64,000 nt of DNA from an uncultured Bacteroidales bacterium (lineage in GTDB: Bacteria; Bacteroidota; Bacteroidia; Bacteroidales; CAYVNP01). Position 1 is the first letter of the stretch, and the number at the start of each line of letters is the position of its first letter. The stretch lies in NCBI GenBank assembly GCA_964452905.1, contig CAYVNP010000001.1, positions 93,066 through 157,065 on the forward strand. The letters are read 5' to 3'. Below are positions 11,640 through 51,825 of this stretch, piece by piece. Made by a program: the position numbers and the translations under genes. The notes beneath the pieces are model-generated. The model was not told where the DNA came from and searched no databases. It saw only the letters and a list, made by a program, of their open reading frames with translations.

Positions 11640-11985
11640 TTGAGGATTATCTTTTTTTGGTATGGTTGGTAACTATTTGCTGATGCGCGTCTTTGACGCG
11701 TGACCATTCTCCTGCTCGTTTTGCAATCCGAGTAAACGAAGTTAATCCCCAACAGTATTGGGGAAGTCTTGGTTCGCGCGCGACTTCTTGTCGCGAGTGA
11801 ATATTAAATAAATGTACGCGAGAGGAACTCGCGCACCAACCCTGGTATTTGCAATCAATTATAACAGCTAACTATCCATGGTGTTTTTTTAACATGAATA
11901 TTAAATAAATATGCTTTTTTTAAAAACAGGCACTCGGATTACAAATCCGAGCAAGCGAGGTCTTCTTGTAGGGGCTGATTTAATT
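11640..11985. repeat. Cluster of GC-rich hairpins and short direct repeats (REP-like intergenic element array)
   Basis: Perfect short hairpins lie at 11686-11700 (cgcgtc/gacgcg), 11746-11764 (tcccca/tgggga), 11779-11795 (cgcgac/gtcgcg), 11817-11833 (cgcgag/ctcgcg) and 11933-11951 (ctcggat/atccgag). A 16-nt direct repeat tgaatattaaataaat occurs at 11798-11813 and 11895-11910. The motif caa(a)tccgag occurs at 11723 and 11942. Confidence 0.6.
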
Positions 11986-34790: not shown

Positions 34791-34915
34791 TAATATTAAA
34801 GCATTCAGGTATTGCTGAAAAAATTTATTCTGATGACAAAGAAGTTGGTTTGTTATTCCATTTAAGAGAGAAAATAAAATTTAAATGTAACGTTTTTCAA
34901 ATCTGAATAATCATA

Positions 34916-35036
34916 TTATACCAATTCTTATTATAAAATATGCCATTGGCAATTTTATAATTTAGAATGGTTAATGCCGATCTACAATATGTTAAGAACA
35001 ATTTATTGGACTTTTACTTATTGAGTTTCGGTATTA
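34916..35036 (+). repeat. Left copy of a 121-bp inverted repeat (partner 46155-46275)
   Basis: 111 nt are identical (34916-35026), then one mismatch, then 9 more matches to the reverse complement of 46155-46275. It duplicates the upstream region and the first 20 codons of the HTH gene, giving a truncated ORF at 34967-35044 (MVNADLQYVKNNLLDFYLLSFGIKS). Confidence 0.85.
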
Positions 35037-35195
35037 AATCATAATAATCAGCGTTCTATTTTTGGCTGCTGAGTCGTGGCAATTTTCTTAATTATAAAGA
35101 AATATCTTATTCGATATAAACTCTAATAATAATAGACTAATTATTTTTTGACAAACTTTTATTATTCCTATCTTTGAGGAGTAAATAAAATTAAA

Positions 35196-37070
35196 ATGTT
35201 TTTATCCAAGCAACATGCACCCCGCTGGTTGATCCTTCTGCTTGATATGACCGTTTGTACGTTTTCGGTCATTCTGGCTTATCTGCTTCGTTTTGATTTT
35301 GGGAATTCACCGGATAAAGACTTTCATGCACTCCCCAAAGTATTGCTGTTTATCCTTTTGATCCGTACAATCATTTTTTTGATCACAAGAACATATGCAG
35401 GTATCATCCGACATACCGGGACAGGAGATACTGTTAAGATTTTTATTTCAACCCTTGCCGGCAGTTTGCTTTTTGTTGGTACAAATATCATTACATTTTA
35501 TTTTATCTCCGGTAGATATTTCATCCCTTTTTCTATCATCATCATCGATTTCTTAACGACTACATTTGTACTGATCGCATTTAGAATATTAATAAAAATC
35601 ATATATATTGAAAACTTTTATTTATTTAAAGAACAAACACAGGTCGTTATTTTTGGTGCCGGTGAGTCCGGATTATTTACCAAAAGAGCCCTCGACCGAG
35701 ATATGGGTATTCGTTACAAAGTAGCTGCCTTTCTGGATGATGATCCAAAAAAGATCAATAAAACACTTGAGCAGGTTAAAATCTACAGTTCCGATAAGTT
35801 AGATGAATTATTGAATGAGGAAAAAAATATCAATCAGGTTATTTTATCTGTTCAGCATCTTCATCCTGATAAGAAAAAAGAAATCATAGAAACATGTTTA
35901 TCGCATAATGTGCATGTCTTGACTGTACCGCCTGTCAGCAGTTGGATCAACGGAGAACTGAGCGTCAAACAGATCAAAGAAATCAATATTGAAGACCTGC
36001 TTGAACGTGCGATCATTAAGTTGGATGAAGAAAAGATCAAGAAAGAACTCATTGGCAAAACAGTACTGGTCACAGGCGCTGCGGGTTCCATTGGCAGTGA
36101 ACTGACAAGACAGATAGCCGTTTTTAAACCCGCTCAATTAATCCTGATCGATCAGGCGGAAACACCTTTGTTTCATCTTGAAGTTGAATTAAATGAACAC
36201 TTCAGAAACTGTAATTTCAAGATCATTGTTGCCGATATCAGGAACAAGAACAGGATGGAGTACATATTTAAACAATACAAACCGGATGTGATCTATCATT
36301 CAGCCGCATACAAACATGTTCCGTTGATGGAAAATAATGCGGTAGAAGCTGTTTCAACCAATATTGAAGGGACAAGAATCATAGCAGATCTATCCATTGA
36401 ATATGGAGTTAAAAAATTTGTCATGATCTCCACCGATAAAGCCGTGAATCCGACCAATATCATGGGGGCTTCCAAAAGAATCGCTGAAGTTTACACACAA
36501 TCACTGAATCAAAAAGAAGTGACTCGTTTTGTAACAACTCGCTTTGGAAATGTGCTTGGCTCGAATGGTTCAGTGGTTGAATTATTTAAGAAACAGATTG
36601 CACACGGTGAACCGCTTACGATCACTCATCCCGATGTAACACGCTTTTTTATGACCATTCCCGAAGCATGCCAGCTTGTTCTTGAAGCAGGAACAATGGG
36701 CAACGGGGGCGAGATATTTATCTTTGATATGGGCAGCCCCGTCAAAATTGTGGACCTTGCCAAAAAAATGATCAAACTTTCAGGATTGACATTGGGAAAA
36801 GATATTCAGATCGTTTTTACGCAATTACGCCCCGGTGAAAAATTATATGAAGAACTTCTCAATGACCATGAAAATACCATTCCTACACATCATCCACAGA
36901 TCATGATTGCCAAAGTGAAAGTTTACGATTTGGAACATTTTACTAAAGAAATGCTTGAACTGATCGAATTACTAAAAAGTCAGAATGATTTTGACATTGC
37001 AAAAAAAATGAAAAAAATGATTCCTGAATTCATCAGCAATAATTCAGTCTTTGAACAACTGGATGTTTAG
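35196..37070 (+). CDS. Polysaccharide biosynthesis protein, membrane-anchored NDP-sugar 4,6-dehydratase (CapD/PglF/WbpM family)
   Basis: 624 aa with an N-terminal 4-TM region, two Rossmann motifs (VIFGAGESG, VTGAAGSIGSEL) and YKHVP...STDKAV. Confidence 0.92.
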   Translation: MFLSKQHAPRWLILLLDMTVCTFSVILAYLLRFDFGNSPDKDFHALPKVLLFILLIRTIIFLITRTYAGIIRHTGTGDTVKIFISTLAGSLLFVGTNIITFYFISGRYFIPFSIIIIDFLTTTFVLIAFRILIKIIYIENFYLFKEQTQVVIFGAGESGLFTKRALDRDMGIRYKVAAFLDDDPKKINKTLEQVKIYSSDKLDELLNEEKNINQVILSVQHLHPDKKKEIIETCLSHNVHVLTVPPVSSWINGELSVKQIKEINIEDLLERAIIKLDEEKIKKELIGKTVLVTGAAGSIGSELTRQIAVFKPAQLILIDQAETPLFHLEVELNEHFRNCNFKIIVADIRNKNRMEYIFKQYKPDVIYHSAAYKHVPLMENNAVEAVSTNIEGTRIIADLSIEYGVKKFVMISTDKAVNPTNIMGASKRIAEVYTQSLNQKEVTRFVTTRFGNVLGSNGSVVELFKKQIAHGEPLTITHPDVTRFFMTIPEACQLVLEAGTMGNGGEIFIFDMGSPVKIVDLAKKMIKLSGLTLGKDIQIVFTQLRPGEKLYEELLNDHENTIPTHHPQIMIAKVKVYDLEHFTKEMLELIELLKSQNDFDIAKKMKKMIPEFISNNSVFEQLDV

Positions 37071-37264
37071 TATTATTTCTTACTTGTTGGTCAAGGTACA
37101 AAATTTCATAAAAACTTTTTTATTCACTTCTTTTATTGAGATTTCTCTAAATTAAATTCCTTTCTTTTTTATATTTGTATTTGGGTGTTTGAAAAATTTC
37201 ACGTACGTTTGTAGTAGAGTGCCAACCCAAAAACAATTTTTTTCTTGTACGGAAAAATCTGATC

Positions 37265-39268
37265 ATGAAAGAATTTATTGAACTCATCGTAAACAATGAA
37301 GACTGGCTGATGCAATGTGTATTGTATTATGCAAAGAAATTCAATTATGATGAATACATTTATACCCAGGAAGGTGCCTGGAGTATTTCTGTCAATGAAC
37401 TTTCCAATGCGTTGATCACAAAGGCATCCCAATCCGGAAAAGTTGTGCCCGAACTGAATCCTCATACAGAACCTGAGGATGATCCTTTATCTGTTTTCGG
37501 AAAAACGCTTGCAGCAAAACAAATCAGCGGAACAAACAGAATTTCCGTTTTACTTGGATTATTGAAATATTACCGCCAATCATTTATGGACCTTGTGGAA
37601 ACATCAATTATTGATGATCACAATAATAACCATTATAAATTATTCACAGAACGTTGTTTCGATACTATTGAAATTTCATTTTGTAATGAATGGCTGATAC
37701 TTTCAGGAGGGAAAAAACAAAAAAATATCATCCAGCCACAGACTTCAACATTCAGCAGCAACAATGTATATCATACCATCTTTGAAAATTCGTATACACC
37801 AATAGTTTTTCTGGACGAAAATAATAGAATCATAAATTACAATTTTGCCGCTGCAGAAATTTTTATTTCAGCAAATACTACTGATTCCTATCAAGAAAAT
37901 TCGCGCGAATCATTAAAACAACTTAATGAAAAATTACAGGAATTTATTCAAAAGGATTTTGATGAAAATATTATTGAAACAGAAATAGATACTGGTCAGG
38001 GGAAACGTTTTTTTCATGTTAAGCTGAAATCCATGCACACGGCAGAAGGGAAACAGAGCGGAACCATTGTGATGTTTGATGATATTACCCGACGCAAAGA
38101 AGCAGAAATGCAGCTTACACTTGCTAAAGAAAAAGCCGAAGAAGCTGATAAATTGAAAACTGCTTTTCTTGCCAACATGTCGCATGAGATCCGAACACCG
38201 ATGAATGCTATTTTAGGATTCTCCAAAATGCTGACCAAATCGGATACTCCTGAAGATAAACGGTCGCAATATATTGAAATCATTAAGAACAGTACCGATC
38301 AACTGCTTACCATCATCAATGATATTGTTGATATTTCGAAAATTGAAGCCCATCAGATCAAGATTGATGAAGGGTCAGTGGTCATGCTGAATGACCTAAT
38401 CGGTGAAATTCATTCTCTGTTCCGTCCAACAGCAGAATTGAACAATCTTAAACTAACCTATAGTCATGGCTTACCAGATATGCCCAGCAATATTTATGCT
38501 GATGGGGTGAGACTACGTCAAATATTAACCAACCTTTTGAGCAATGCACTCAAGTTCACCAGTCAGGGATATATTAAATTCGGATATATATTAAAAGATT
38601 CATTTCTTGAATTTTTTGTTGAGGATTCAGGCATCGGAATATCACAGGATAAACAAGAACTCATTTTTGAACGTTTTAGCCAGGCCGATCTGACGACCCC
38701 GAAACTATTTGGTGGTACAGGTCTTGGCTTATCGATTGCTAAAGCATTGATTGAGTTGCATGGAGGCAAAATATGGCTGAAATCTCAACCCGATAAAGGA
38801 TCCGTTTTTTATTTTACCATTCCTTATCGTCCGGTATACGCCAATAAAAATTTAAATGGGGAAGCAAAAAAAGAACCAAAAGAAAACAATTGGGATAACA
38901 TCACAATGATGATCGCAGAAGATGAAGAAATCAATTATCTGTTCTTAAAAGAATTTCTCTCTAAAACACATATTAATCTGATCAGAGCGCGTAATGGTCA
39001 TGAAGCGATTGAACTTTATAAACAACATTCAAATATCGATCTGATCTTAATGGATATTAAAATGCCTGTGAAAGACGGATATGAAGCTACCAAACAAATC
39101 AAGCTGATCAACCATGATGTTCCTATCATCGCTCAAACGGCCTATGTTTTTGAAGATGATAAAATCAGAATCTCACAATCCGGGTTTGATGATTACATAT
39201 CCAAACCCATCAATGAAATGAAACTGATCAATACCATTAAAAAATTTATCGAGAAAGTAAAGACTTAA
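37265..39268 (+). CDS. Hybrid sensor histidine kinase/response regulator (cytoplasmic)
   Basis: PAS-like segment, H-box FLANMSHEIRTPMNAILGF, HATPase N/G boxes, and a C-terminal REC domain (IAEDEEIN...LILMDIKMP). Confidence 0.92.
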   Translation: MKEFIELIVNNEDWLMQCVLYYAKKFNYDEYIYTQEGAWSISVNELSNALITKASQSGKVVPELNPHTEPEDDPLSVFGKTLAAKQISGTNRISVLLGLLKYYRQSFMDLVETSIIDDHNNNHYKLFTERCFDTIEISFCNEWLILSGGKKQKNIIQPQTSTFSSNNVYHTIFENSYTPIVFLDENNRIINYNFAAAEIFISANTTDSYQENSRESLKQLNEKLQEFIQKDFDENIIETEIDTGQGKRFFHVKLKSMHTAEGKQSGTIVMFDDITRRKEAEMQLTLAKEKAEEADKLKTAFLANMSHEIRTPMNAILGFSKMLTKSDTPEDKRSQYIEIIKNSTDQLLTIINDIVDISKIEAHQIKIDEGSVVMLNDLIGEIHSLFRPTAELNNLKLTYSHGLPDMPSNIYADGVRLRQILTNLLSNALKFTSQGYIKFGYILKDSFLEFFVEDSGIGISQDKQELIFERFSQADLTTPKLFGGTGLGLSIAKALIELHGGKIWLKSQPDKGSVFYFTIPYRPVYANKNLNGEAKKEPKENNWDNITMMIAEDEEINYLFLKEFLSKTHINLIRARNGHEAIELYKQHSNIDLILMDIKMPVKDGYEATKQIKLINHDVPIIAQTAYVFEDDKIRISQSGFDDYISKPINEMKLINTIKKFIEKVKT

Positions 39269-39765
39269 AATTTAGTCTCTTTGATTAATTTCCCCTTATC
39301 AAATATTTTCTCTTTTATCTTTTTACCCTTCTTATCCCAGTATGTCCACAAGCCATCATTGAAGCAATCAACGTAATTTCCCTCACTTTCCTTCTGCCCG
39401 TTTTCATACCAATAAACAGCATACCCATTGCGAAAATCATTGACATATATTTCTTCGCTTTTTTTCATACCGCTTTCATAGTAATAAGTCATTTTACCAT
39501 TGAATTTCCCATCTATAAATTCAGCGGATAAATAAATCTTTCCATTGGCAAACCATGATGTTTGTGTTCCGTTGTACTTTCCATCAACAAAGTTTGATTC
39601 AGACGTTTTTTGACCGTTTACCGAATACGTATACGCTTTGCCTGTAAAAAGACTGTCATGATTATATTTAACTCCATCCACATCCTTTAATGTAATCATA
39701 TTTACTTCTTGTGAATATATTGATAGAGTGAATAGAATAAATCCAACTACTAAATATTTTTTCAT
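39265..39765 (-). CDS. MORN-repeat-variant (YwqK-like) secreted protein
   Basis: 166 aa with a signal peptide and repeated G-x-x-x-x-W/Y-Y-x-N-G-Q/K units. Confidence 0.7.
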   Translation of the reverse strand: MKKYLVVGFILFTLSIYSQEVNMITLKDVDGVKYNHDSLFTGKAYTYSVNGQKTSESNFVDGKYNGTQTSWFANGKIYLSAEFIDGKFNGKMTYYYESGMKKSEEIYVNDFRNGYAVYWYENGQKESEGNYVDCFNDGLWTYWDKKGKKIKEKIFDKGKLIKETKF

Positions 39766-39848
39766 ATTTAAAAATTAATACTCAAAGGTAAGAATAAAAA
39801 ATATGGAAAAACTATAACGCGTTGACTGTTTAATTCCAAATTTTTATT

Positions 39849-39987
39849 TAATTTTGCACGTACTATTATAAAAATTAAAAATGGACGAAGGCCCGGCGAT
39901 ATATAAATCATTAAACACTTTGATATAGAAGGGTGGCGCTTTATCTAACCTCCTTTCAGTATCAAGTTATAAAAAGAGGAGGTACCA
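39849..39987 (+). promoter_or_regulatory. Promoter box plus ~120-nt structured leader with alternative SD-sequestering pairing
   Basis: TAATTTTG box at 39849-39856. Purine boxes gaaggcccggcg (39887-39898) and gaagggtggcgc (39928-39939). Pyrimidine box aacctcctttc (39947-39957), which can pair either with the second purine box or with the SD agaggaggt (39975-39983). Confidence 0.45.
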
Positions 39988-41265
39988 ATGACTTTCCAGA
40001 AAACATTTTATTTAAGTAAGATTTTAGAAAAACGTCTTTATGATCCGCAAGGTCATTCAATTGGCAAGATCAAAGACGTTTTGATTGATCTTCATCCTTC
40101 GGGATCAGATGAGAATACTTCTCCAAAACCAAAAATTACCGGTTTGAAACTTAAATCCGCTGGTCAGATTCGTACTATTGCTTTTGACGAAGTGGAAATC
40201 ACCAAATTCAAAGGAGACTTCACGGTTAGTTGTAAAGAATTGATTGAACTGAGCGAAGAAAAAATTAATTCCGGACTATTCCTGAACGAAAATATTCTGG
40301 ATAAACAAATAGTTGATATTAACGGAAGAAAAGTAGTACGGGTGAATGATATTCGTTTGGTTATAGTTTCCAGCGGTGCTTATGTTATTGCAGTTGATGT
40401 GGGTATTGAAGGGCTATTACGCAGGATTGGCATTGCTAAATTTTTTCAGCGGTTATTTTCCTTATTCAGAGTTTCTATCCCATCCAAATTTATTTTATGG
40501 GATGATGTTGAAACCATTGATCATTCACGGCATAGTATTAAATTATCCAAAACATCTTCCAAACTTCATCGCTTGCATCCGTCGGATGTTGCGGATATCA
40601 TTGAAGAACTCGGACGTGCTTCCAAAACAACTGTATTTGCTACATTGGATGAAGAAAAAGCTGCCGATGTGCTTGAAGAGCTTGAACCGCATGTACAAGT
40701 GGATATCATTGAAAGTCTTCCTGTTCATAAGGCTGCTGACGTACTTGAAAAAATGCCTGCCAATGAAGCTGCCGATATTATTGATGAACTGGAAGATGAA
40801 AAAGCCGAACAATTGCTGAATGAGATGGAAGTTGAATCATCCGAAGAAGTCAGAGAGCTTTTAGAATATCCTGCTTATAAAGTGGGAAGTATTATGACTA
40901 CTGATTACCTTTCATTCCGGAATGACCAAACCGTAGAGGATGCACTTCAAATCATCCGTTCTCAAAAACCGGAAACAGATCTTTTATATAATTTGTTTAT
41001 TACCGATCAAAATGAAAAACTGATTGCTACTTTATCACTCAGGGATTTAGTGGTGTCTGAGCCGCAGGTTAAACTGGATCAGATCATGAAAAACAAACCG
41101 GTCAAGGTATATGATGACGATCGGATTGACTTACTCGCTGAAATAACCGAGAAATACAATTTGCTGGCAATACCGGTTATTGATCAAGAAGATTCATTGT
41201 TGGGGATGGTAGTCATCGATGATATTATTGAAGACCTTGTAAATAAAGGAAGAACCAATAAATAG
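39988..41265 (+). CDS. Soluble PRC-barrel + MgtE N-domain + CBS-pair protein (MgtE cytoplasmic sensor module without a membrane domain)
   Basis: 425 aa. It has acidic helical repeats (DVADIIEEL...AADVLEELEP...AADVLEKMP...AADIIDELEDEKAEQLLNEM) typical of MgtE_N, followed by two CBS motifs. No hydrophobic segments. Confidence 0.85.
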   Translation: MTFQKTFYLSKILEKRLYDPQGHSIGKIKDVLIDLHPSGSDENTSPKPKITGLKLKSAGQIRTIAFDEVEITKFKGDFTVSCKELIELSEEKINSGLFLNENILDKQIVDINGRKVVRVNDIRLVIVSSGAYVIAVDVGIEGLLRRIGIAKFFQRLFSLFRVSIPSKFILWDDVETIDHSRHSIKLSKTSSKLHRLHPSDVADIIEELGRASKTTVFATLDEEKAADVLEELEPHVQVDIIESLPVHKAADVLEKMPANEAADIIDELEDEKAEQLLNEMEVESSEEVRELLEYPAYKVGSIMTTDYLSFRNDQTVEDALQIIRSQKPETDLLYNLFITDQNEKLIATLSLRDLVVSEPQVKLDQIMKNKPVKVYDDDRIDLLAEITEKYNLLAIPVIDQEDSLLGMVVIDDIIEDLVNKGRTNK

Positions 41266-41277
41266 GAGGATTTTGCC

Positions 41278-42528
41278 ATGATGAATGCCAGAGTCAGAAG
41301 AAATTCTTTTTTACGGAATATCGCCTTATTCCTTGTAATCCTTGGTCCGGGTATTATTACCGGCAGTGTTGACAATGATGCCGGAGGGATCACCACCTAT
41401 TCTGTTGCCGGCGCCCGTTACGGGTATGGACTGATCTGGACGCTCATTCCTTCTTTTATCGTGCTGGTTATTATTCAGGAGATGAATGCACGAATGGGAA
41501 TCGTCACAGGCAAAGGACTTGCAGACCTGATCCGTGAAAAAGCAGGAGTAAAAGTGACATTTTTTATTTTTGTCGGTTTGCTGGTTGCTGACATTGGGAA
41601 TACAACTACCGAATTTGCCGGTGTCGCAGGCAGTATGGAAGTATTTAGTATTAATAAATATATTTCTGTACCTATCGTCTCAATGATGGTATGGTTACTG
41701 GTCGTAAAAGGAAATTATAAAATAGCTGAACGAATTTTTCTGATTTTCAGCGCTTCTTTATTGATGTATGTTATTTCAGCACTGATGGGTAAGCCACACT
41801 GGAAAGAGATCGGCTCTTCCATCATTCATCCGAAGATGGATATGAGTGCAAGCGGATTAGCCATGGTGATCGGTATCATCGGCACGACCATTGCTCCCTG
41901 GATGCAGTTTTATATGCAATCATCCGTCATCGAAAAAAGATTGAAAATGAGGAAATATAAATTTACACTGCTTGATGTTGTTGTCGGTTGTGTTGCTACC
42001 GTTGTCGTTGCGTTTTTTATTATTGTTGCCTGTGCGTCCACGTTGTATGAAAATCATATTACTATTAATGAAGCAAAGGATGCGGCGCTCGCTTTAAAGC
42101 CCCTGGCAGGCAATCTGTCATCACAAGTGTTTGCTTTCGGTTTGTTTGTTGCTTCTGTTTTTTCAGCCACCATACTACCTCTGGCAACCGCCTTCTATGT
42201 ATGCGAAGCATTCGGTTTTGAAGCAGGTATTGATAAAAAATGGGATGAAGCCCCTGAATTTTATTTTTTATATACAGGTATTTTAATTATTGCAGCAGGA
42301 ATTATTTTAATCCCCAATGCTCCGCTGATTGCTATTTCTCTGTGGTCTCAGGTCATCAATGGAATCCTGCTGCCGGTTGTACTTGTTTGTATGATCCTGC
42401 TGGTGAATGACAAAAAAATAATGGGTGAGCATGTCAATAAACCAATCAATAATATTATCGGCTGGTCAACGGTGATCATTCTGATTGGCTTATCCTCTAT
42501 GCTTTTATTCATGCCTTTCTTTTCTTAA
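41278..42528 (+). CDS. NRAMP-family divalent cation transporter with an NRMT-like (Mg2+-type) binding-site signature
   Basis: 416 aa with about 11 TM helices. TM1 reads VDNDAGGITTY where canonical NRAMP has DPGN. TM6 reads GTTIAPWMQFYMQS where canonical NRAMP has GAxxMPHNLYLHS. The SD aggagga (41264-41270) overlaps the upstream stop codon. Confidence 0.88.
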   Translation: MMNARVRRNSFLRNIALFLVILGPGIITGSVDNDAGGITTYSVAGARYGYGLIWTLIPSFIVLVIIQEMNARMGIVTGKGLADLIREKAGVKVTFFIFVGLLVADIGNTTTEFAGVAGSMEVFSINKYISVPIVSMMVWLLVVKGNYKIAERIFLIFSASLLMYVISALMGKPHWKEIGSSIIHPKMDMSASGLAMVIGIIGTTIAPWMQFYMQSSVIEKRLKMRKYKFTLLDVVVGCVATVVVAFFIIVACASTLYENHITINEAKDAALALKPLAGNLSSQVFAFGLFVASVFSATILPLATAFYVCEAFGFEAGIDKKWDEAPEFYFLYTGILIIAAGIILIPNAPLIAISLWSQVINGILLPVVLVCMILLVNDKKIMGEHVNKPINNIIGWSTVIILIGLSSMLLFMPFFS

Positions 42529-42618
42529 TATGTGTTAACTGAATATTTAAACTTCTCTGTATTTATCATCCTGAAAATTTATTTATATCTTTACCATCAC
42601 ATTAACTGTTTTGGTTGA

Positions 42619-44124
42619 ATGAATCTATATGCCCAACGAAAACGATGGAACTGGTTCCTGTTGATTTTTGCAGCAGTGATTGTTATCATTTCATTATGGT
42701 ACACCAATAAACTGGTAAAGAACATTGCGCAGGAAGAAAGAAAAAAAGTCAAACTCTGGGCTGAAGCCATTCGCAGGAAAGCAGTGCTGGTCAAGTATAC
42801 AGATAGTCTTTTTGAAAAATTAAAAATTCAGGAACGTAAACGGGTTGAAATATGGGCAGAAGCCAACAAATATATTTTTACTGCCGGTCCTAATGAAGAC
42901 CTAACATTCTTTGTAAAAATTATTACCGACAACACGACCATTCCTGTTATTGTTACCAATCACAAAGGAGAAATTACCAATGCTGCTAATGTTGATTTTG
43001 ATTTAAAAAAAATCAAATTCTTTAATGATTCCCTCAAAAAACAATTTTCTGATTATCCTCCTTTTGTCATCAATTATTATGGAAATCTTAAGTTATTCCT
43101 GTATTATAAAGATTCAAAATTGTTTACTGATCTTCGTGAAGTAATGAATGATATTATCCGATCCTTTCTTTCGGAGATCATCAATTCAGCGTCGGTTCCT
43201 GTCCTTATAACGGACAGTACTCAACAACATGTGATTGCTTCAGGAAATGTTGATACAATCAGTTTTAAAGATCAGGCAGCGGTTATAAAAACAATCGCAT
43301 CTTTCCGTTCCGCTAATACACCGGTTGAAGTTGAACTTACCGGTAAAGTAAAAAGTTATATATTCTATAAAGATTCATATTTGCTCACACGGCTTAGGTA
43401 TTATCCATACGTACAATTTTTTATCATCGGACTTTTTTTACTGATCGCCTATCTGATGTTCAGCACCACACGAAAAGCCGAACAAAACCAGGTGTGGATG
43501 GGAATGGCAAAAGAAACGGCACACCAGTTAGGTACACCCTTATCATCCTTAATGGCATGGATGGAAATACTGAAAATGAAACAAGGCGATAATGAAACCA
43601 CGGAGGAACTCAAAAAAGATATTGATCGACTTGAAACTATTGCCGAACGATTTTCTAAAATTGGTTCACCTCCCAAACTGGAAAAAGAAAATATTGTAAA
43701 AATACTCTATCGCTCAATCGAATACCTTAAATCAAGAACATCAAAGAATGTAATCTATTCGATCAATACACCGGAGAGTGTTGAAATATGGATTCCTTTG
43801 AATGCACGTTTATTTGAATGGGTGATTGAAAACATATGTAAAAATGCCGTTGATGCCATGGCAGGCAAAGGTTATCTTACGATTCAACTGGGTGAAGAAG
43901 GAAAAAATATTTTTATAGATATCTCCAATACGGGAAAAGCTATTCCTAAATCTAAATTCAAAACCATATTTCACCCGGGATATACAACTAAACAGAGTGG
44001 CTGGGGACTCGGTCTGTCTCTTGCCAGAAGGATTATTGAAGAAGTACATAAAGGAAAAATATTTGTTAAAAAATCTATTCCGGATAAAGAAACTACATTT
44101 AGAATTATATTAAAAAAATTATAA
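42619..44124 (+). CDS. Membrane sensor histidine kinase (no adjacent response regulator)
   Basis: 501 aa with two TM helices flanking a ~230-aa periplasmic domain, the H-box AHQLGTPLSSLMAWMEIL, and HATPase motifs. Confidence 0.88.
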   Translation: MNLYAQRKRWNWFLLIFAAVIVIISLWYTNKLVKNIAQEERKKVKLWAEAIRRKAVLVKYTDSLFEKLKIQERKRVEIWAEANKYIFTAGPNEDLTFFVKIITDNTTIPVIVTNHKGEITNAANVDFDLKKIKFFNDSLKKQFSDYPPFVINYYGNLKLFLYYKDSKLFTDLREVMNDIIRSFLSEIINSASVPVLITDSTQQHVIASGNVDTISFKDQAAVIKTIASFRSANTPVEVELTGKVKSYIFYKDSYLLTRLRYYPYVQFFIIGLFLLIAYLMFSTTRKAEQNQVWMGMAKETAHQLGTPLSSLMAWMEILKMKQGDNETTEELKKDIDRLETIAERFSKIGSPPKLEKENIVKILYRSIEYLKSRTSKNVIYSINTPESVEIWIPLNARLFEWVIENICKNAVDAMAGKGYLTIQLGEEGKNIFIDISNTGKAIPKSKFKTIFHPGYTTKQSGWGLGLSLARRIIEEVHKGKIFVKKSIPDKETTFRIILKKL

Positions 44125-44183
44125 TACAAACAAACATATTTATATTATTCAAATATGATATTTAATTTTTAATTACACCATCC

Positions 44184-44741
44184 ATGTCCATTTTTACTAT
44201 TTTATTAATCGCTATTGGACTTTCTATGGATTGTTTTGCAGTTACCATTGCCATTGGATTTACGTATGATAACTTTCAACGTAAACAGGCATTACGGATA
44301 GCTGCCATTTTCGGATTATTTCACATTCTGATGCCAACCCTTGGCTGGCTGATAGGAACTCCTTTTAAACAATTCATTTCTGATATCGATCATTGGATTG
44401 CTTGTATTATGCTTTCGGGAATTGGCATCAAAATGATTGTTGAAGCCATCAGAAATCATCCTGAAGAAAAAAAAGATATCAATAAAATCATGGTTCTTAT
44501 CTGGCTTGCATTTGCTACCAGTATGGATGCACTGATCATCGGAGTCAGTATGGCTTTTCTGGATGTTAATATTTTTATCATACCGTTCATATTTGGATTG
44601 ATTACATTTTTGATTTCATTTATCGGATGCTCCATCGGAAAAAGATTTGGATATATTCTTGGTGAAAGAGCTGAAATTATTGGCGGCTTGGTATTGATCG
44701 CTTTAGGGGTAAAAATTTTACTTGATCATACATTACTTTAA
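44184..44741 (+). CDS. mntP: Manganese efflux pump MntP
   Basis: 185 aa with 6 TM helices and the duplicated motifs LSMDCFAV / TSMDALIIG characteristic of MntP/YebN. Confidence 0.9.
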   Translation: MSIFTILLIAIGLSMDCFAVTIAIGFTYDNFQRKQALRIAAIFGLFHILMPTLGWLIGTPFKQFISDIDHWIACIMLSGIGIKMIVEAIRNHPEEKKDINKIMVLIWLAFATSMDALIIGVSMAFLDVNIFIIPFIFGLITFLISFIGCSIGKRFGYILGERAEIIGGLVLIALGVKILLDHTLL

Positions 44742-44743
44742 TA

Positions 44744-45646
44744 ATGAAATACCTTGTTTTGTTTTTTCTGTTAAATCTTAATTCATTGAATTGCATTTCT
44801 CAAATTCAATGGAGTAAAAAAAACAGCATGTATTTTTTATCTTCCGGTCCAATCCATTTAACGATTGATACTTCCATGGGAGGAAGAATATCTTCATTGA
44901 AATTAAATCAACAGGAAATGCTAAATCAAACCTGTATCTCTTGCGGGTCATTGTTCTGGACAAGTCCTCAAAGTAGCTGGGGTTGGTGGCCACCGGTCAA
45001 ATCATTTTCAAGCAAACCGTTCAATTCCGTATTGAATAATAATAAAACTGAATTGGTATTAACCAGCCGAATTGATTCTGTTACAGGGTTTCAAATGATA
45101 AAAAAGATTCATGCCGATAAAAAAAATAATTCCATAGAATTGACCTATATTCTCATAAATCAAACAGATTCCGTCAACGTGGTTGCACCATGGGAATTAA
45201 CTTTTGTTCCTACAGGTGGATTTTATTTTTTCCCAAAAGCAAGCAATTTCACACTTGTTCAGAAGAATAAAGGGAATCCGAAAGAATTAATTCCGCAAAT
45301 TGATGATTCAATTGTATGGTATGCTTACAGGATGGATGATCATCATAAAAAACTTTTCAGGGATGGCGCTGAAGGCTGGATGGCTATGGTACAAAAAAAC
45401 ATATTGTTTATTAAAAAATATCCTGACATTCCGATTTCGCAGTTTGCTCCTCAAGAAGCAGAAGTTGAGATCTACACTGCTGCAGATCATGCTGAATTTG
45501 AAGTTCAAGGTGCTTATACCACGCTTCAGCCAAAACAATCACTCACCTGGTCCGTTCAGTGGTATCTTGCTGAAATCCCTGCATACATGAATTCCACGAT
45601 GGGTTCACCCACGCTTGTTAACTATGTACGAAGTATAATAAAATAA
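44744..45646 (+). CDS. Hypothetical secreted protein (possibly a mutarotase-like fold)
   Basis: 300 aa with a signal peptide. The fold guess is weak and rests only on motifs such as GGRISSLKLN and WELTFVP. Confidence 0.45.
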   Translation: MKYLVLFFLLNLNSLNCISQIQWSKKNSMYFLSSGPIHLTIDTSMGGRISSLKLNQQEMLNQTCISCGSLFWTSPQSSWGWWPPVKSFSSKPFNSVLNNNKTELVLTSRIDSVTGFQMIKKIHADKKNNSIELTYILINQTDSVNVVAPWELTFVPTGGFYFFPKASNFTLVQKNKGNPKELIPQIDDSIVWYAYRMDDHHKKLFRDGAEGWMAMVQKNILFIKKYPDIPISQFAPQEAEVEIYTAADHAEFEVQGAYTTLQPKQSLTWSVQWYLAEIPAYMNSTMGSPTLVNYVRSIIK

Positions 45647-45673
45647 TTATTTTTATTAAAAAAACTATTTATC

Positions 45674-45681
45674 TATCTTTG
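45674..45681 (+). promoter_or_regulatory. Candidate -7 promoter box (TATCTTTG) for tRNA-Leu
   Basis: It matches TAnnTTTG and lies 22 nt upstream of the tRNA 5' end. Confidence 0.4.
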
Positions 45682-45703
45682 CAATCCAATTTCAAATCAA
45701 TAA

Positions 45704-45787
45704 GCCCGAATGGCGGAATTGGTAGACGCGCTGGTCTCAAAAACCTGTGAGTGCAAGCTCGTGCCGGTTCAACTCCGGCTTCGGGTA
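45704..45787 (+). tRNA. tRNA-Leu (anticodon CAA), type II with a long variable arm
   Basis: Folded by hand. Acceptor stem GCCCGAA/TTCGGGT (G1-U72 wobble). D-loop AATTGGTAG. Anticodon loop CTCAAAA. Long variable arm. T-arm GCCGG TTCAACT CCGGC. Discriminator A. CCA is not encoded. Confidence 0.9.
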
Positions 45788-45801
45788 CATTTTTCACCTC
45801 A

Positions 45802-45832
45802 AAACCCTTGATTTATCAGGGGTTTCTTTTTT
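45802..45832 (+). terminator. Rho-independent terminator after tRNA-Leu
   Basis: Stem aaacccttga / tcaggggttt (one G-U pair), loop ttta, followed by cttttttg. Confidence 0.6.
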
Positions 45833-45861
45833 GTTCGATTGAAAAGGGGGCTGACATTTTT

Positions 45862-46224
45862 TTAAGCAGCAACATTATTATTCCTTCTTGTATATTTTAT
45901 ACTTCTAATTTCTTGTAAAGAACTCATAACATCTTTTCTAAAGTATCTCACATTCCCAGCAAGACGTAATCCTTTCAAAATTCCTGATTTTGTATATTCA
46001 TTTAGAGATTGTGAAGAAATTTTTAATATCTCCATTACTTCTTCACGAGTTAATAAATCTTCATCCGATTTATTTGGTAGATTTGATAAACACTTTTGTA
46101 TAGAGTGTTCGATTGATTGCTGAATAAATTCTTTAAATTCTTCAATCGGGATTGTAATACCGATACTCAATAAGTAAAAGTCCAATAAATTGTTCTTAAC
46201 ATATTGTAGATCGGCATTAACCAT
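45862..46224 (-). CDS. Helix-turn-helix (excisionase/MerR-like HTH_17-type) DNA-binding protein
   Basis: 120 aa. The C-terminal part LLTREEVMEILKISSQSLNEYTKSGILKGLRLAGNVRYFRKDV resembles the small HTH proteins of Bacteroidota mobile elements. It lies immediately 3' of the tRNA gene. Confidence 0.65.
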   Translation of the reverse strand: MVNADLQYVKNNLLDFYLLSIGITIPIEEFKEFIQQSIEHSIQKCLSNLPNKSDEDLLTREEVMEILKISSQSLNEYTKSGILKGLRLAGNVRYFRKDVMSSLQEIRSIKYTRRNNNVAA

Positions 46225-46275
46225 TCTAAATTATAAAATTGCCAATGGCATATTTTATAATAAGAATTGGTATAA
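46155..46275 (-). repeat. Right copy of the 121-bp inverted repeat (partner 34916-35036)
   Basis: See the left copy. Position p on the left maps to 81191-p on the right. Confidence 0.85.
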
Positions 46276-46602
46276 CAATTATTTGAGTATCCATAAAAAG
46301 TTTAATTTTTTATATTCTTATGTGTAATTATTTCTTTCAATCTCAATATTTACAAGCTACATGCTAAACATCAATAACACTGTCACTCCTACGGAGTTTA
46401 AAATTCGGGGCTTTATTTATTCTACCAAAATATTACCCCGATGGGATTTAATTTTAGCTCCATAGGAACGAGGTGAGCAGGAGTCATATATTATTAATGA
46501 TGTATATGTCGAACTCATGTTAAAATAATAATATTTTTATGGTTATTAGAAAGTGTAATTTAATAAAATTCTTATTTTTGAAAAAACAAAATAAACTGCA
46601 CC

Positions 46603-47313
46603 ATGTTAACAGCACTTCTTATAATCGGTATAGTAGCGTTATTACTGCTCGAAACCTATTGGTACTCAACGCAAATAAATGTAGTGTTAGATGTTGCTCT
46701 CGATCACGATTATGGTTTTCATATTTTGGCAATGCAAATGCTTTTGCCTACAAAAAGCAATATTATACGCAACTCAAACACAGTAATGAAAGATGTTTTT
46801 GTTGATATTCGGACTAAAAAAGCCTACAGGGTAGTTTTTGGAAAGCTTTTAAACAATTATTATGAGGATTCGGGATTTTCCGAAGGTTATACCACGGTAA
46901 GGCAAGGCTTAATTAATCACGATAAACGAAGGACTGCCTTATTCGAAAAACTGAAAATAAAAACCGGTTTAGATCACCGTTTTGATGATGTTAAAAGCCA
47001 TAATGGTGCAATAAGGTATTTTGAAGGAGCTTTCGACCCAAACAATCCCCACATGAATAAACCATCAACTGTTATTGTTAATTCATTTAGTTACTCCTAT
47101 TATACAGTTACTTGTATTGACGATAAATCGCAAATTGCATGGTCGCGTAAAATGAATAACCGGTATGAACAGGGCTTATGCAGGAGTTTTATCTTTAACG
47201 ATCAGGTATTTGTAATTTCGATGAAGTTAGTGATGGATTTAACCTTCAGAAACTTTAAAATACATTGCTTTGACATTAAAACAGGTAAAACTATCTGGAC
47301 AAAGGCAATTTAA
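46603..47313 (+). CDS. Hypothetical membrane-anchored protein
   Basis: 236 aa with an N-terminal TM helix. Its C-terminal 16 aa (HCFDIKTGKTIWTKAI) resemble the C-terminus of the 361-aa protein at 50341-51426. Confidence 0.55.
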   Translation: MLTALLIIGIVALLLLETYWYSTQINVVLDVALDHDYGFHILAMQMLLPTKSNIIRNSNTVMKDVFVDIRTKKAYRVVFGKLLNNYYEDSGFSEGYTTVRQGLINHDKRRTALFEKLKIKTGLDHRFDDVKSHNGAIRYFEGAFDPNNPHMNKPSTVIVNSFSYSYYTVTCIDDKSQIAWSRKMNNRYEQGLCRSFIFNDQVFVISMKLVMDLTFRNFKIHCFDIKTGKTIWTKAI

Positions 47314-47454
47314 TAGGGATTTTTTACTCCAGCTCATTCGGATTTATTATCATGATTTATAATGCAAGTGTGAAAGCAAACTAACCATGGTGTTTTATTA
47401 ACAAGAAGTATGAAATAAATATGAATAAATAATTATTATTAAAATTTATTTTTT

Positions 47455-47462
47455 TATATTTG
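47455..47462 (+). promoter_or_regulatory. Candidate -7 promoter box (TATATTTG) for the LRR gene
   Basis: It matches TAnnTTTG and lies 88 nt upstream of ATG 47551. Confidence 0.4.
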
Positions 47463-47475
47463 TTAAAATAAAAAG

Positions 47476-47491
47476 TAGTTTCCGGAAACTA
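47476..47491. promoter_or_regulatory. Perfect 16-bp palindrome tagtttccggaaacta (candidate operator or 5' hairpin)
   Basis: It is exactly self-complementary and starts 14 nt after the promoter box. Confidence 0.4.
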
Positions 47492-47550
47492 TTAAAACCC
47501 GGGGCGTAACCGAAAAGCCGTAAGAGTAGGAAAAACTAAAATGAAAAAGT

Positions 47551-48804
47551 ATGAAAAAAATTTACCTTTTAATGATGGTATTGTCTTTTGCATTTATAAG
47601 TTCACTTAAAACACATGGTCAAAATATTAACATCCCGGATCCGATTTTCAAATCAATTCTGGTAAACAACCCATCCATTAATACAAATCAGGATGGGGAA
47701 ATTCAAGAATTCGAAGCTCAGGTATATACCGGCTCCATTTTTGTTGATGCTGCCGGTATAACCGACCTTACAGGCATCAACACTTTTGCGTCATTAACTG
47801 AGCTAAGCTGTTACGGTAATGAACTGACCAACCTTAATGTTCATTATTGCACAGCTATCACCACATTGAACTGCAGTGGAAACCATCTCACTTCATTGGC
47901 TCTTCCGGGCAGCACATCATTGGTCTCACTAAATTGTCATAGCAATCAGCTTACGGGTCTTGAACTCAATTCTTATGTCAACCTCCAAACCCTGAATTGT
48001 CGCAACAATTCACTTACAAATCTTTCACTTCCAATATCACTTGTTAATTTGATATGTGATTATAACCAGTTGACCTCACTTTCTTTTTATGGAAACATGA
48101 GTCTTAAAACACTTTCTTGCAACAACAACCAACTTACTAGTTTATTTTTAGGTAATACTCCTTTGAATAATCTGAACTGTTCAGTTAACCAATTAACATC
48201 TCTCGACCTTTCCGACCTTAATGGGTCATCTATTATTATTTCTTGTTCACAAAATCAACTTACAAGTCTATTGCTGGGTACAGCAAGTATAACTTCATTA
48301 ATTTGCAGTGTAAATAAATTGACAGACCTTGATATATCAGGCACCCCTGCCACAGCTCTTGATTGCAGCCAGAATCAGCTTCTATCTTTGAATGCTCAAA
48401 ACGGTATGAATTATAGCTTTGCTTCATTCTATTCAACCTCCAATCCAAACCTTCAGTGCATCCAAGTTGACGATCCTACATGGTCATCAACCTACTGGAC
48501 TCATATTGACAATGGAACATTTTTCAGTGATAATTGCCTTACCGGACTACAAGACAAACAAGCAAGTCGTGATGTTTCTGTTACAGTTTATCCGAACCCG
48601 GGACAGGGAATTTTTACTATTGCATCTGAGCACAATTTTTCGACTCTCAAATTATTCAACTCATTTGGACAGCTTGTCTTGAGCAACGAGACAATCCCGG
48701 AAATCACGACCATAGATTTAAGTCACCACAGTCAGGGTATATATAATTTGATTCTCAGTGACGAAAAAGGATTCACTTACTCAAGAAAAATTGTCATTGA
48801 ATAA
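47551..48804 (+). CDS. Leucine-rich repeat protein with T9SS type A C-terminal sorting domain
   Basis: 417 aa with a signal peptide and about 11 LRR units (LTSLxL...LxxLxCxxNQ). The C-terminus is VTVYPNPGQGIFTI...GIYNLILSDEKGFTYSRKIVIE. Confidence 0.88.
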   Translation: MKKIYLLMMVLSFAFISSLKTHGQNINIPDPIFKSILVNNPSINTNQDGEIQEFEAQVYTGSIFVDAAGITDLTGINTFASLTELSCYGNELTNLNVHYCTAITTLNCSGNHLTSLALPGSTSLVSLNCHSNQLTGLELNSYVNLQTLNCRNNSLTNLSLPISLVNLICDYNQLTSLSFYGNMSLKTLSCNNNQLTSLFLGNTPLNNLNCSVNQLTSLDLSDLNGSSIIISCSQNQLTSLLLGTASITSLICSVNKLTDLDISGTPATALDCSQNQLLSLNAQNGMNYSFASFYSTSNPNLQCIQVDDPTWSSTYWTHIDNGTFFSDNCLTGLQDKQASRDVSVTVYPNPGQGIFTIASEHNFSTLKLFNSFGQLVLSNETIPEITTIDLSHHSQGIYNLILSDEKGFTYSRKIVIE

Positions 48805-49377: not shown

Positions 49378-50256
49378 TCAGGATATTCGAAAATATGCTA
49401 TGCCAACTATGATACTCCACAAAACAATTCCGGCAATATAAGAAATAACAACCCACAATAATCTTTTGTGAGCAGTATCTGTTAAGTTATTATCTAATGG
49501 AATCAATAAATTCATTTCCTGATTCTTGTTATTGACATAAGATTGTATAGCTGAAATGAAATTGTCACGAAACCCAGAACTTTGTGGTGAATAATAAACA
49601 GATTTACTCGAATAATCTTTTTCTAAAAATTCTTTTAAACAATTCGCTTTATATACTTCAAAATCCGATTGTAAACCCTGAGGACGGGAATAACGGCTTT
49701 CAGACCTGCTAAAATATGTTCCTGTCCATAATTTTACATTAGAAATATTGACTGTATCTTTCGGGGTATTTATAAGTGGGCAAATAAAATATATTTGGGT
49801 TCGATGATATTCATCCGACTTTCCAGCTGAGTTTCCTGTAACATAAGTAAATACGTTCTGTTTATCAGCATAACATTCCTTAAATTGATAATATGTTCCG
49901 CGTTTTATTGAAGTAATTTCTGAAGGAAATAGTAATCCCTGTTTTTGGGGTAAAAAAAACTGCATATATTGCGATGAACAAAACATTGGGATAAACATAC
50001 CAAGTGCAGCTAAAAAAAGTAAGAAATTATATAGTCTTGGTGTGTTAAATTCAAATGCTGCAAGACCCGAAATTTTTGGAGATATAAACATTAAGGTTAT
50101 AAGCAATGCCAATATTGCAGGCGTAATAAATTCGGTATATATTCTCTTAATTGAATATAAACTATAATGGTAATAAACCCAATATAGTATTGAGAAAAGA
50201 ATAAGAATACTCAATGAAAAAATTGCATAATGGCATATCAATGATAAAATTTTCAT
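49378..50256 (-). CDS. Hypothetical polytopic membrane protein
   Basis: 292 aa with three N-terminal TM helices, a ~150-aa loop domain and a C-terminal TM helix. I recognise no motif. Confidence 0.6.
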   Translation of the reverse strand: MKILSLICHYAIFSLSILILFSILYWVYYHYSLYSIKRIYTEFITPAILALLITLMFISPKISGLAAFEFNTPRLYNFLLFLAALGMFIPMFCSSQYMQFFLPQKQGLLFPSEITSIKRGTYYQFKECYADKQNVFTYVTGNSAGKSDEYHRTQIYFICPLINTPKDTVNISNVKLWTGTYFSRSESRYSRPQGLQSDFEVYKANCLKEFLEKDYSSKSVYYSPQSSGFRDNFISAIQSYVNNKNQEMNLLIPLDNNLTDTAHKRLLWVVISYIAGIVLWSIIVGIAYFRIS

Positions 50257-50340: not shown

Positions 50341-51426
50341 CTAAAATCTTTGTTTCCATTTAATTTTACCACTTGCAGTTTCAATACAATAAACAAATCC
50401 ACCGATACCAATATAGATATTGTTATTATTTAGCACAGCATCCGTTACCAGCGGTTTTTTATCAGAAAAGAAATCGTCAGGGGCTAATGTTTCATGGTTG
50501 ATTTTCCATTGTGTTATTAAATTCATATTAAGTGCGGTAAAAATATATTTTTCTTTATCTGTATTTTCATAACTTAATATCAGAATTAAGTTGTTATCAG
50601 GGGAAAAACCTATGCAGCTCCCTTCAATAAAAGATTCATCCGAATATACTTTTTTCTCAACCGCATCATCAATCCGGAATAAATGAGTTCGTTTTTCGCC
50701 ATATATTAATGATTTGAATTTAAAAATTTCCTTCTCACTGCCATTTTCTATATAAATTATTTTATCATAATAGCACGAGTATTTTTTATATAAATAATGT
50801 GAGGGATCAGGTTCAGCAACTATTTTATCGCTAAAAGGTTCATAATAATAAATAAGTCCGTCTTTTGACTTAATAATAATAAAATCTTTGATATAACTGA
50901 TATTATCAATACCTGCAGAGCATTGAATAAAATTTTTAATAAAATATTCTTTGTCTATTTTCCTGACAATCTCAGTTTTATCAATATCAAACACATTATA
51001 GGTTTTACTGTTCGAAAGAAGCATAAGGTTGTCTTTGTCTTTGCGCCATTCCATACCTATACCCAAATACCCCCGGTATAAACGCTTGCCATTTTCCATA
51101 TCCACTATGTATAGCCGGTTCAAATCTAACATTCCCAAAGTGGAATAACGTGCCGTGGATCTTTTCCTATTATCAAAAAAAATTAATTTGTTTTTACATA
51201 CTGACAAATGAGTGATGTGATGAACATAACCATTTTCTTTTGACCAGTATAATGAAGATGTGAAAAATAGGATCGCCGAAAGTACGATCACAATACCAAT
51301 GCCTATTATTCCTTTTTTCAACAATTTGTATTTGAAAATGATCAGAACAATAGCTGTTGTTAATACTAATAAAGTAATAATAAAAATAAGTTTGGATGTT
51401 GCCAGGATGTTGAAAATTGCTTCCAT
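50341..51426 (-). CDS. Hypothetical membrane-anchored protein with beta-propeller-like repeats
   Basis: 361 aa with two N-terminal TM helices and a beta-rich domain. It contains D-x-x-x-G-K-x-x-W/Y blade-like motifs, and its C-terminus is YCIETASGKIKWKQRF. Confidence 0.6.
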   Translation of the reverse strand: MEAIFNILATSKLIFIITLLVLTTAIVLIIFKYKLLKKGIIGIGIVIVLSAILFFTSSLYWSKENGYVHHITHLSVCKNKLIFFDNRKRSTARYSTLGMLDLNRLYIVDMENGKRLYRGYLGIGMEWRKDKDNLMLLSNSKTYNVFDIDKTEIVRKIDKEYFIKNFIQCSAGIDNISYIKDFIIIKSKDGLIYYYEPFSDKIVAEPDPSHYLYKKYSCYYDKIIYIENGSEKEIFKFKSLIYGEKRTHLFRIDDAVEKKVYSDESFIEGSCIGFSPDNNLILILSYENTDKEKYIFTALNMNLITQWKINHETLAPDDFFSDKKPLVTDAVLNNNNIYIGIGGFVYCIETASGKIKWKQRF

Positions 51427-51825
51427 GTTTTTATGATGAAATTATTTAATAACGTATTACAGATTCACGATTATGAAATTTTTTATTAAAATTCTGTTCT
51501 GCAGGTATTAATGTCATCTTGTCCTAAATTTATTGGGTTGGAGTTGGTAACTTCATTAATATTCGACACTTAATCGGTGATTTAATTGTTCATCTCTTAC
51601 ATACTCACCTGAAAGGCTCATGTCCTCCCTTCCTCCCTGTCCAATCAATACCACCCGCATTGCCGAAAAACACCGCAGGTTGGTTTTAGACCCACTCCTG
51701 ATTGTTGTTCTGATAGTCCCTGTTTTTTCGTCTTCTTTCTATTTTTGTACTATCATCCTGGCAATAGTTACGAACTTTCAGCATTTGGGTTGTGTTACAC
51801 AATTGTTGCTCTCTCGTGGCACACA

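Follow-up and report, generated by a model that had tools for sequence, protein, structure and literature searches.

In a 64-kb stretch of DNA from an uncultured Bacteroidales bacterium (64,000 nucleotides, hereafter the window), two inverted repeat arms of 121 nucleotides (nt) bracket an 11.1-kb block of genes that runs from a capD-like gene to a tRNA-Leu gene. Our analysis indicates that these arms are probably two recent copies of a hairpin-forming insertion element resembling MITEs (miniature inverted-repeat transposable elements), which lie in opposite orientation and would have been mobilized in trans. On the evidence of reading frame and protein family, the right arm is an insertion 19 nt into the coding sequence of a helix-turn-helix (HTH) gene of the HTH_17 family, where it severs the start codon and first six codons from the remainder of the gene. 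The 120-aa "HTH/excisionase" open reading frame (ORF) annotated at this site is, as predicted from the same comparison, a chimera begun at an ATG inside the element.

The inverted repeat and the gene interrupted by its right copy

A repeat search of the window placed the arms at 34916-35036 and 46155-46275, 121 nt each, 99% complementary and 11,118 nt apart. An earlier reading, made from the letters alone (the sequence-only reading), had reported this inverted repeat, and the repeat is real: we reproduced its run of 111 matches, one mismatch, and 9 further matches, giving 120 of 121 identical bases and a self-BLAST E-value of 1.3e-57 for the pair. The single mismatch falls at unit position 112, with T at 35027 in the left copy and A, in unit orientation, at 46164 in the right copy. 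That reading took the near-identity of the arms to imply a recent event or ongoing homogenisation, and the 120 identical bases support a recent event. The homology ends sharply: in local alignments, neither the outer nor the inner flanks of the arms (300 nt each) scored above shuffled sequence. The pair is the sole long repeat within the window. The only other repeat found by self-BLAST was an AT-rich direct match of 49 bp and 88% identity (11866-11913 versus 47375-47423), which is probably low-complexity sequence. The two copies and the features that they touch are as follows.

34916-35036, + strand: left copy of the unit, in the spacer between a fucosidase gene (end 34790) and the capD-like gene (start 35196)
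34919-35033, + strand: likely element core of the left copy, TACC...GGTA, with TTA at 34916-34918 and 35034-35036
34967-35044, + strand: 25-codon ORF, an element-internal ATG frame closing 8 nt past the left copy
46155-46275, - strand: right copy of the unit, within codon 7 of the HTH_17 (excisionase-family) gene
46276-46294, - strand: native 5' end that the insertion cut off from the HTH gene, ATG GAT ACT CAA ATA ATT G, encoding MDTQII plus the first base of codon 7
45862-46154, - strand: body of the HTH_17 gene, the part homologous to excisionase-family proteins of roughly 95-105 aa
45862-46224, - strand: annotated 120-aa ORF, a predicted chimera with residues 1-23 from the unit and the remainder from the HTH gene

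The right copy allows an empty-site test, in which excision of the unit restores an in-frame, family-typical HTH_17 N-terminus. When the unit is excised with one TTA kept, MDTQII joins the gene body in frame to give MDTQIIVTIPIEEF... / MDTQIIVTIPIEEFKEF..., and this reconstruction aligned without gaps to positions 1-97 of a 98-position hidden Markov model (HMM) of 136 family members, with a score of 115.0 bits. Excision of all 121 bp gives MDTQIIAIPIEEF... and 111.6 bits against the same model, and the ORF as it now stands enters the model only at position 7, with its residue 23, for 109.8 bits. Homologues begin with N-termini such as MQNIIFTQIPIDEF, MQNLIFSQIPIEEF, and MSNQILISIPIDEF, and only 4 of 127,960 six-frame positions in the window had a position-specific scoring matrix score as high as or higher than that of MDTQII. 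The presence of an in-frame MDTQII outside the right copy, together with an HMM alignment that starts at position 1, argues that the right arm inserted in codon 7. As the sequence stands, the native ATG frame lasts 22 codons before a stop within the unit closes it.

The lengths of family members point in the same direction. An exhaustive HMMER search with the HTH protein retrieved 717 homologues, and the best 149 of these are nearly all 90-113 aa long, with alignments to the window protein that begin at its residue 18-28. Residues 1-17 of the window ORF had almost no counterpart in these best 149 homologues. In a separate profile search, the window protein was the longest among the members listed.

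These findings change how the repeat relates to the HTH gene. The unit spans 51 nt upstream and the first 23 codons of the annotated ORF, and the sequence-only reading had described it as upstream DNA plus the first 20 codons of the gene. This description stands at the level of the ORF and fails for the native gene, whose start and six codons lie outside the copy. The repeat resembles an HTH "promoter and first 20 codons" because the ATG of the element re-heads the gene, and since this ATG is fortuitously in frame with the remainder of the gene, gene callers report a 120-aa chimera. The same reading had the left copy encode a 25-aa stub, which we found as the 25-codon ORF at 34967-35044. Expression of the chimeric ORF is doubtful, since a TAnnTTTG promoter box is missing ahead of both the native and the chimeric HTH start; the unit holds a one-mismatch version of the box 2 nt before its ATG. 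The insertion has probably disabled the excisionase-family ORF.

Beyond the displaced HTH start, a 308-nt noncoding stretch (46295-46602) separates it from a divergent gene for a 236-aa protein, and a terminator-like hairpin lies inside this stretch (46447-46435, - strand).

Hairpins, termini, and flanking duplications of the unit

Folded as single-stranded DNA, the unit forms two hairpins, at positions 5-56 and 57-121. The fold has a free energy of -22.5 kcal/mol, compared to -6.4 +/- 2.1 kcal/mol for shuffled sequences (z = -7.7), and none of 200 shuffles folded as well. Such a double-hairpin fold is unlike that of a promoter-plus-coding region. The first hairpin contains a palindrome that is confined to the two copies, and the left copy is abutted on both sides by the same 7-mer.

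34930-34961, + strand (left copy), and 46230-46261 (right copy): hairpin 1 palindrome, ATTATAAAAT-N12-ATTTTATAAT
34909-34915, + strand: AATCATA, abutting the left copy on its left side
35037-35043, + strand: AATCATA, abutting the left copy on its right side

The unit is AT-rich, and its 121 bp (115 bp for the core) fit the MITE range of about 50-800 bp. Its coding capacity is limited to the 25-codon frame, with no transposase. The termini, TTATACC...GGTATTA, match as an inverted repeat at 6 of 7 positions (background, 2.6e-3), or at 7 of 9 in a longer comparison, and the end motif recurs a third time (TAATGCCGA) at unit positions 57-65.

A systematic search found TTA to be the sole flanking duplication valid for both copies, which leaves a core of 115 bp. 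Subgroups of the IS5 family of insertion sequences (ISs) and PIF/Harbinger-type elements make 3-bp TNA/TTA target duplications, and our literature check found no citable statement on the 3-bp duplication of the IS5 subgroups. At the left copy, AATCATA offers a different duplication, and an exact 7-bp direct repeat abuts a 121-bp segment at a fraction of only 2.3e-4 of window positions. The empty spacer between the fucosidase and capD-like genes is predicted to have read ...AATCATATTAAATCATA... with TTA as the duplication or ...AATCATAATAATC... with the 7-mer as the duplication.

Together, these features support a model where a small, AT-rich, noncoding element with a 115-bp core, or 121 bp including a TTA on each side, would have entered the window twice. 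One copy would have landed between genes, upstream of the capD-like gene, and the other would have entered the orphan HTH_17 gene beside tRNA-Leu near its 5' end. Both may owe their mobility to a transposase that acts in trans from a gene elsewhere in the genome and duplicates a TTA target. The only consequence of the inverted pair would then be 121 bp of homology for occasional RecA-type inversion. The evidence points toward a small mobile or multicopy unit, which the sequence-only reading had itself named as the finding that would speak against its own proposal.

Several observations weigh against a MITE-like element and are best considered together. The copies of the unit that are documented number two. 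An nhmmer search covering the window and 1.35 Mb of Bacteroidales DNA from related loci recovered no third copy, diverged or otherwise. Two exact sub-patterns of the unit were absent from JGI metagenomes, as was one of the two from IMG/VR, and neither PLSDB plasmids nor a phage collection gave a blastn match to the left copy, whether its short flanks were included or not. The 64-kb window contains no cognate transposase or IS with matching ends. Terminal inverted repeats extend over only 4-7 bp versus the 10-15 bp usual for a MITE, and the core TACC/GGTA termini, perfect over 4 bp, fall below the usual criterion of at least 10-15 bp. The right copy lacks a 7-mer of the AATCATA type, and TTA and AATCATA are mutually exclusive as target duplications. 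With two copies, the sequence at the left site might also have been copied ectopically into the HTH gene in one event, an unlikely alternative that we weigh below. The unit also had no match in Rfam, either at gathering score or at an E-value of 1 or lower.

Orientation of the block and rival explanations

Sequences flanking each copy pair in cis. At the right copy, one strand carries both the displaced HTH start and the gene body, and the reading frame continues from one to the other across the copy; at the left copy identical 7-mers lie on both sides. A flipped segment would give each copy one foreign flank, and since the flanks pair in cis, the repeat is no inversion scar. GC skew at 4-fold degenerate sites provides weaker, independent support for the present orientation. 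In the flanking DNA, this skew was -0.063 for + strand genes and +0.062 for - strand genes (pooled chi-square p = 0.007), and that of the + strand genes in the block was -0.079, which agrees with the value for flanking + strand genes and differs from that of flanking - strand genes (pooled p = 0.017; gene-level Mann-Whitney p = 0.05). The strand dependence of 4-fold-site GC skew is in its own right a usable replication-strand signal, even in 64 kb. We observed no sign of a past inversion or of a misoriented assembly. Thus, the proposal of the sequence-only reading that the repeats are the scar of a past inversion is contradicted by both the cis-paired flanks and the skew, and on the same grounds we rejected a model of inversion through staggered breaks. 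An independent Logan assembly (run SRR12261227), reached through the 236-aa protein, contains a 1.6-kb contig that is 100% identical over 46438-48029; it begins inside the 308-nt noncoding stretch, at a distance of 163 nt from the repeat. Exact matching of the HTH and capD-like proteins yielded no contig. Homologous inversion could use the two inverted 121-bp copies as its substrate, and such an inversion would alter no promoter-gene linkage, since both copies carry identical internal sequence up to the crossover.

The intervening DNA has the following content, in agreement with the genes that the sequence-only reading had listed and annotation confirmed.

35037-46154, no strand assigned: capD-like gene, hybrid kinase, MORN, MgtE_N/CBS plus NRAMP, kinase, MntP, DUF4380, and tRNA-Leu genes

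The capD-like gene (35196-37070) encodes a dehydratase and the hybrid kinase is a histidine kinase. The wider setting is chromosomal DNA of a low-GC member of the Bacteroidota, on an NCBI contig of 173,742 bp, with type IX secretion system (T9SS) sorting domains, PheT, PBP2/RodA, RecG, and a ComM-like gene. A search with the NRAMP protein yielded 80 Bacteroidales loci, none from the source genome, in which only the MgtE_N-NRAMP pair was syntenic with the 11-kb block. The capD-like protein has its nearest relatives, at 76% and 74% identity, in unrelated neighborhoods. A comparison of synteny in relatives, which the sequence-only reading had proposed as a check, thus revealed conservation of the MgtE_N-NRAMP pair only and gave no ancestral orientation. 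These findings indicate that the 11.1-kb block is not a unit and that its position between the copies is incidental.

Each of the capD-like and tRNA-Leu genes is preceded by a Bacteroidota-type -7 box of its own (TATCTTTG), at -27 and -30, respectively. The promoter region proximal to capD is conserved with the closest relative, whose 156-nt upstream spacer lacks the unit sequence. We rejected the idea that the left copy places an HTH promoter before capD, as the unit has no TAnnTTTG box before its ATG, capD has a conserved box of its own, and the unit is foreign to the HTH gene. A composite transposon with 121-bp ends was likewise rejected, with no transposase inside and no duplication around the whole 11.4 kb.

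The HTH gene raised the question of a mobile island, as it adjoins a tRNA-Leu(CAA) gene at 45704-45788. The sequence-only reading had noted an excisionase-like HTH gene near tRNA-Leu, and the family is indeed integrase associated: source annotations label its members "excisionase family DNA binding protein," PHROG excisionase matches agree, and in five of five contexts examined a same-strand tyrosine integrase precedes the homologue at a distance of 0-1 genes, one of these contexts also having a terminase gene downstream. Beside the window gene, we found no integrase, attachment (att) repeat, or other recognizable partner gene. ORFs scanned across the 64 kb gave zero matches to Phage_integrase, Resolvase, Recombinase, or transposase domains; tblastn with two integrases against the window found no integrase remnant; the tRNA region (45691-45830) had no match of at least 12 nt elsewhere in the window; and tblastn of the HTH protein against plasmids gave no match. 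The window HTH gene is at most an orphan remnant of an integrated element, and nothing demonstrable links the repeat to such a history. We therefore rejected a mobile island at tRNA-Leu, for which an integrase, integrase remnant, or att repeat is lacking in the window, and the suggestion that the repeat marks the edge of a mobile element using the tRNA-Leu locus is not supported in a window that lacks these features and any recombinase.

Of the explanations other than a MITE-like element, we consider a one-off event unlikely. A native patch of 118-121 bp, for instance in the fucosidase-capD spacer, would have been copied once through template switching or break repair and have come to lie inverted within the HTH gene, without a dedicated mobile element. 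The observation of two copies, the very short terminal inverted repeats, and 64 kb of DNA without a transposase are consistent with this event, as is AATAAT-type microhomology common to the left flanks of both sites. However, short direct repeats (AATCATA or TTA) border the left copy as well, in the manner of an insertion, and the unit is a compact double hairpin (z = -7.7) that repeats one motif at its two ends and centrally, a typical build for dedicated small repeat elements. The unit is also missing from the 156-nt spacer upstream of the closest capD relative, even though the proximal promoter is conserved there.

The account proposed by the sequence-only reading is very improbable; in it, the unit is native to the HTH gene, and an inversion or duplication bordering a mobile element that used tRNA-Leu produced the left copy as a truncated duplicate. 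In favor of this account, the annotated ORF does start within the unit, and the gene belongs to an integrase-associated family and abuts tRNA-Leu. Under this proposal, HTH orthologues would be expected to begin with MVNADLQYVKNN... and to lack an MDTQII remnant upstream, but the family-type N-terminus lies outside the unit and in frame across it, and residues 1-17 go almost unmatched in the best 149 of the 717 homologues. Furthermore, the flanks pair in cis with a skew that fits the present orientation, the window lacks an integrase, an integrase remnant, and a tRNA-derived direct repeat, and the unit has no TAnnTTTG box upstream of its ATG.

A programmed, site-specific invertible segment, such as an inverton or shufflon whose recombinase uses, for example, the ATTATAAAAT-N12-ATTTTATAAT palindrome, has an equally slim chance of being correct. 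Bacteroidota are rich in invertible DNA, and both the inverted orientation of the copies and a palindrome with arms and spacer in each would suit such a system. Yet the 64 kb contains neither a tyrosine nor a serine recombinase, the 121 bp of identity is far above the size of a recombinase site, inversion would switch nothing because every gene would stay joined to identical copy-internal sequence, the capD-like and tRNA-Leu genes have their own promoters, and the block is not a conserved unit. An assembly artefact, in the form of a false duplication or a wrongly oriented segment in a metagenome-assembled genome, is the most improbable of all. The contig comes from an uncultured organism, and assemblers can misorient DNA between inverted repeats, but the two copies have four unique flanks and differ by one base, and the in-frame HTH start and body and the paired 7-mers would be broken in a flipped assembly. 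The Logan contig is identical over 46438-48029, though this region lies outside the repeat.

A more speculative extension of the MITE-like reading is that the unit serves as a portable 5' cassette, a MITE domesticated for regulation or reversible inversion, which we regard as quite improbable. If this were so, an operator-like palindrome and a start codon would re-head the HTH gene, with the same control sequence placed upstream of the capD-like gene, and the cell could flip an 11-kb block that carries Mn/Mg homeostasis genes and tRNA-Leu(CAA).

Apart from the repeat, other features of the window emerged. TAnnTTTG boxes lie 21-34 nt upstream of several first genes, including those for the 236-aa protein (-30), MORN (-25), and RecG (-29), and examples are at 35168-35175 (capD-like) and 45673-45680 (tRNA-Leu). 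A soluble MgtE_N plus CBS protein without a transmembrane part is encoded directly upstream of the NRAMP-family transporter (39988-42528, + strand). This adjacency recurred in 79 of the 80 Bacteroidales loci, which are all of those that reach upstream of the NRAMP gene; the remaining locus (L056) begins at the gene. The Rfam DUF805 RNA motif RF03081 matched at 47470-47536 (+ strand; 54.2 bits, above the gathering score), directly upstream of a leucine-rich repeat protein with a T9SS sorting tail (47551-48804) and not of a DUF805 gene. A second Rfam match, to group-II-D1D4-2, occurred at 51607-51723 (- strand; 38.3 bits, with a gathering score of 36), and the ORFs beside it on the same strand (50341-51426 and 49378-50256) had no Pfam match and no reverse transcriptase domain. 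The 90%-identity protein cluster of the capD-like protein has as its representative an unrelated high-GC JGI fragment of 57 aa, a database oddity.

Comparison with known elements

The main value of these results is one of correction. The annotated HTH ORF reads as a chimera, the bracketed 11-kb block is neither a mobile nor an invertible unit, and the repeat is best masked as a small repeat element and not taken for a rearrangement scar. The unit adds one more MITE-like element to those of uncultured Bacteroidales and exemplifies how such elements can mimic a "duplicated gene start." Should additional copies exist in that genome, they would mark recent transposition and possible hot spots for rearrangement.

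Among described systems, small elements such as the Correia elements of Neisseria and RUP of Streptococcus pneumoniae are comparable. Elements derived from IS200/IS605, known as palindrome-associated transposable elements (PATEs), and repetitive extragenic palindrome (REP) and bacterial interspersed mosaic element (BIME) units have subterminal hairpins and little or no terminal inverted repeat. When elements of the PATE or REP type insert beside a specific short sequence, which could be TTA here, the result can mimic a target duplication. In contrast to these elements, the unit lies in a window without a TnpA or RAYT transposase gene, its copies are in opposite orientation within 11 kb, and the 7-bp repeat flanking the left copy would not arise from single-strand transposition. 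Likeness to the IS5 subgroups and PIF/Harbinger elements is limited to the TTA duplication, with no transposase or matching IS ends, and may be treated as a lead. The arms resemble the invertons and shufflons of Bacteroidota in that inverted repeats flank DNA in a Bacteroidales genome, but those systems combine 15-30-bp sites with a recombinase and switch a promoter or gene segment, whereas here the window has no recombinase and inversion would switch nothing.

MITEs are defined as small, AT-rich, noncoding elements with inverted ends and short flanking duplications (PMC4596501; bioRxiv 10.1101/2024.01.18.576219), and in Porphyromonas gingivalis, inversions and other rearrangements have been linked to them (PMC2575886). 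Bacterial MITEs of 50-800 bp occur in spacers and gene ends, and their inverted copies serve as rearrangement substrates. Like the unit, MITE239, MITEPgRS, and BrickBuilt of P. gingivalis, itself a member of the Bacteroidales, are small, AT-rich, noncoding, and hairpin prone, with near-identical copies. The unit differs from MITEs in its two documented copies, its terminal repeats of 4-7 bp, and the lack of an identified parent IS. We found no sequence similarity of the unit to any described element. Considering both the likenesses and the differences, the unit is most likely a new MITE-like element in an uncultured Bacteroidales genome and, as such, an instance of a kind of feature that is already known.

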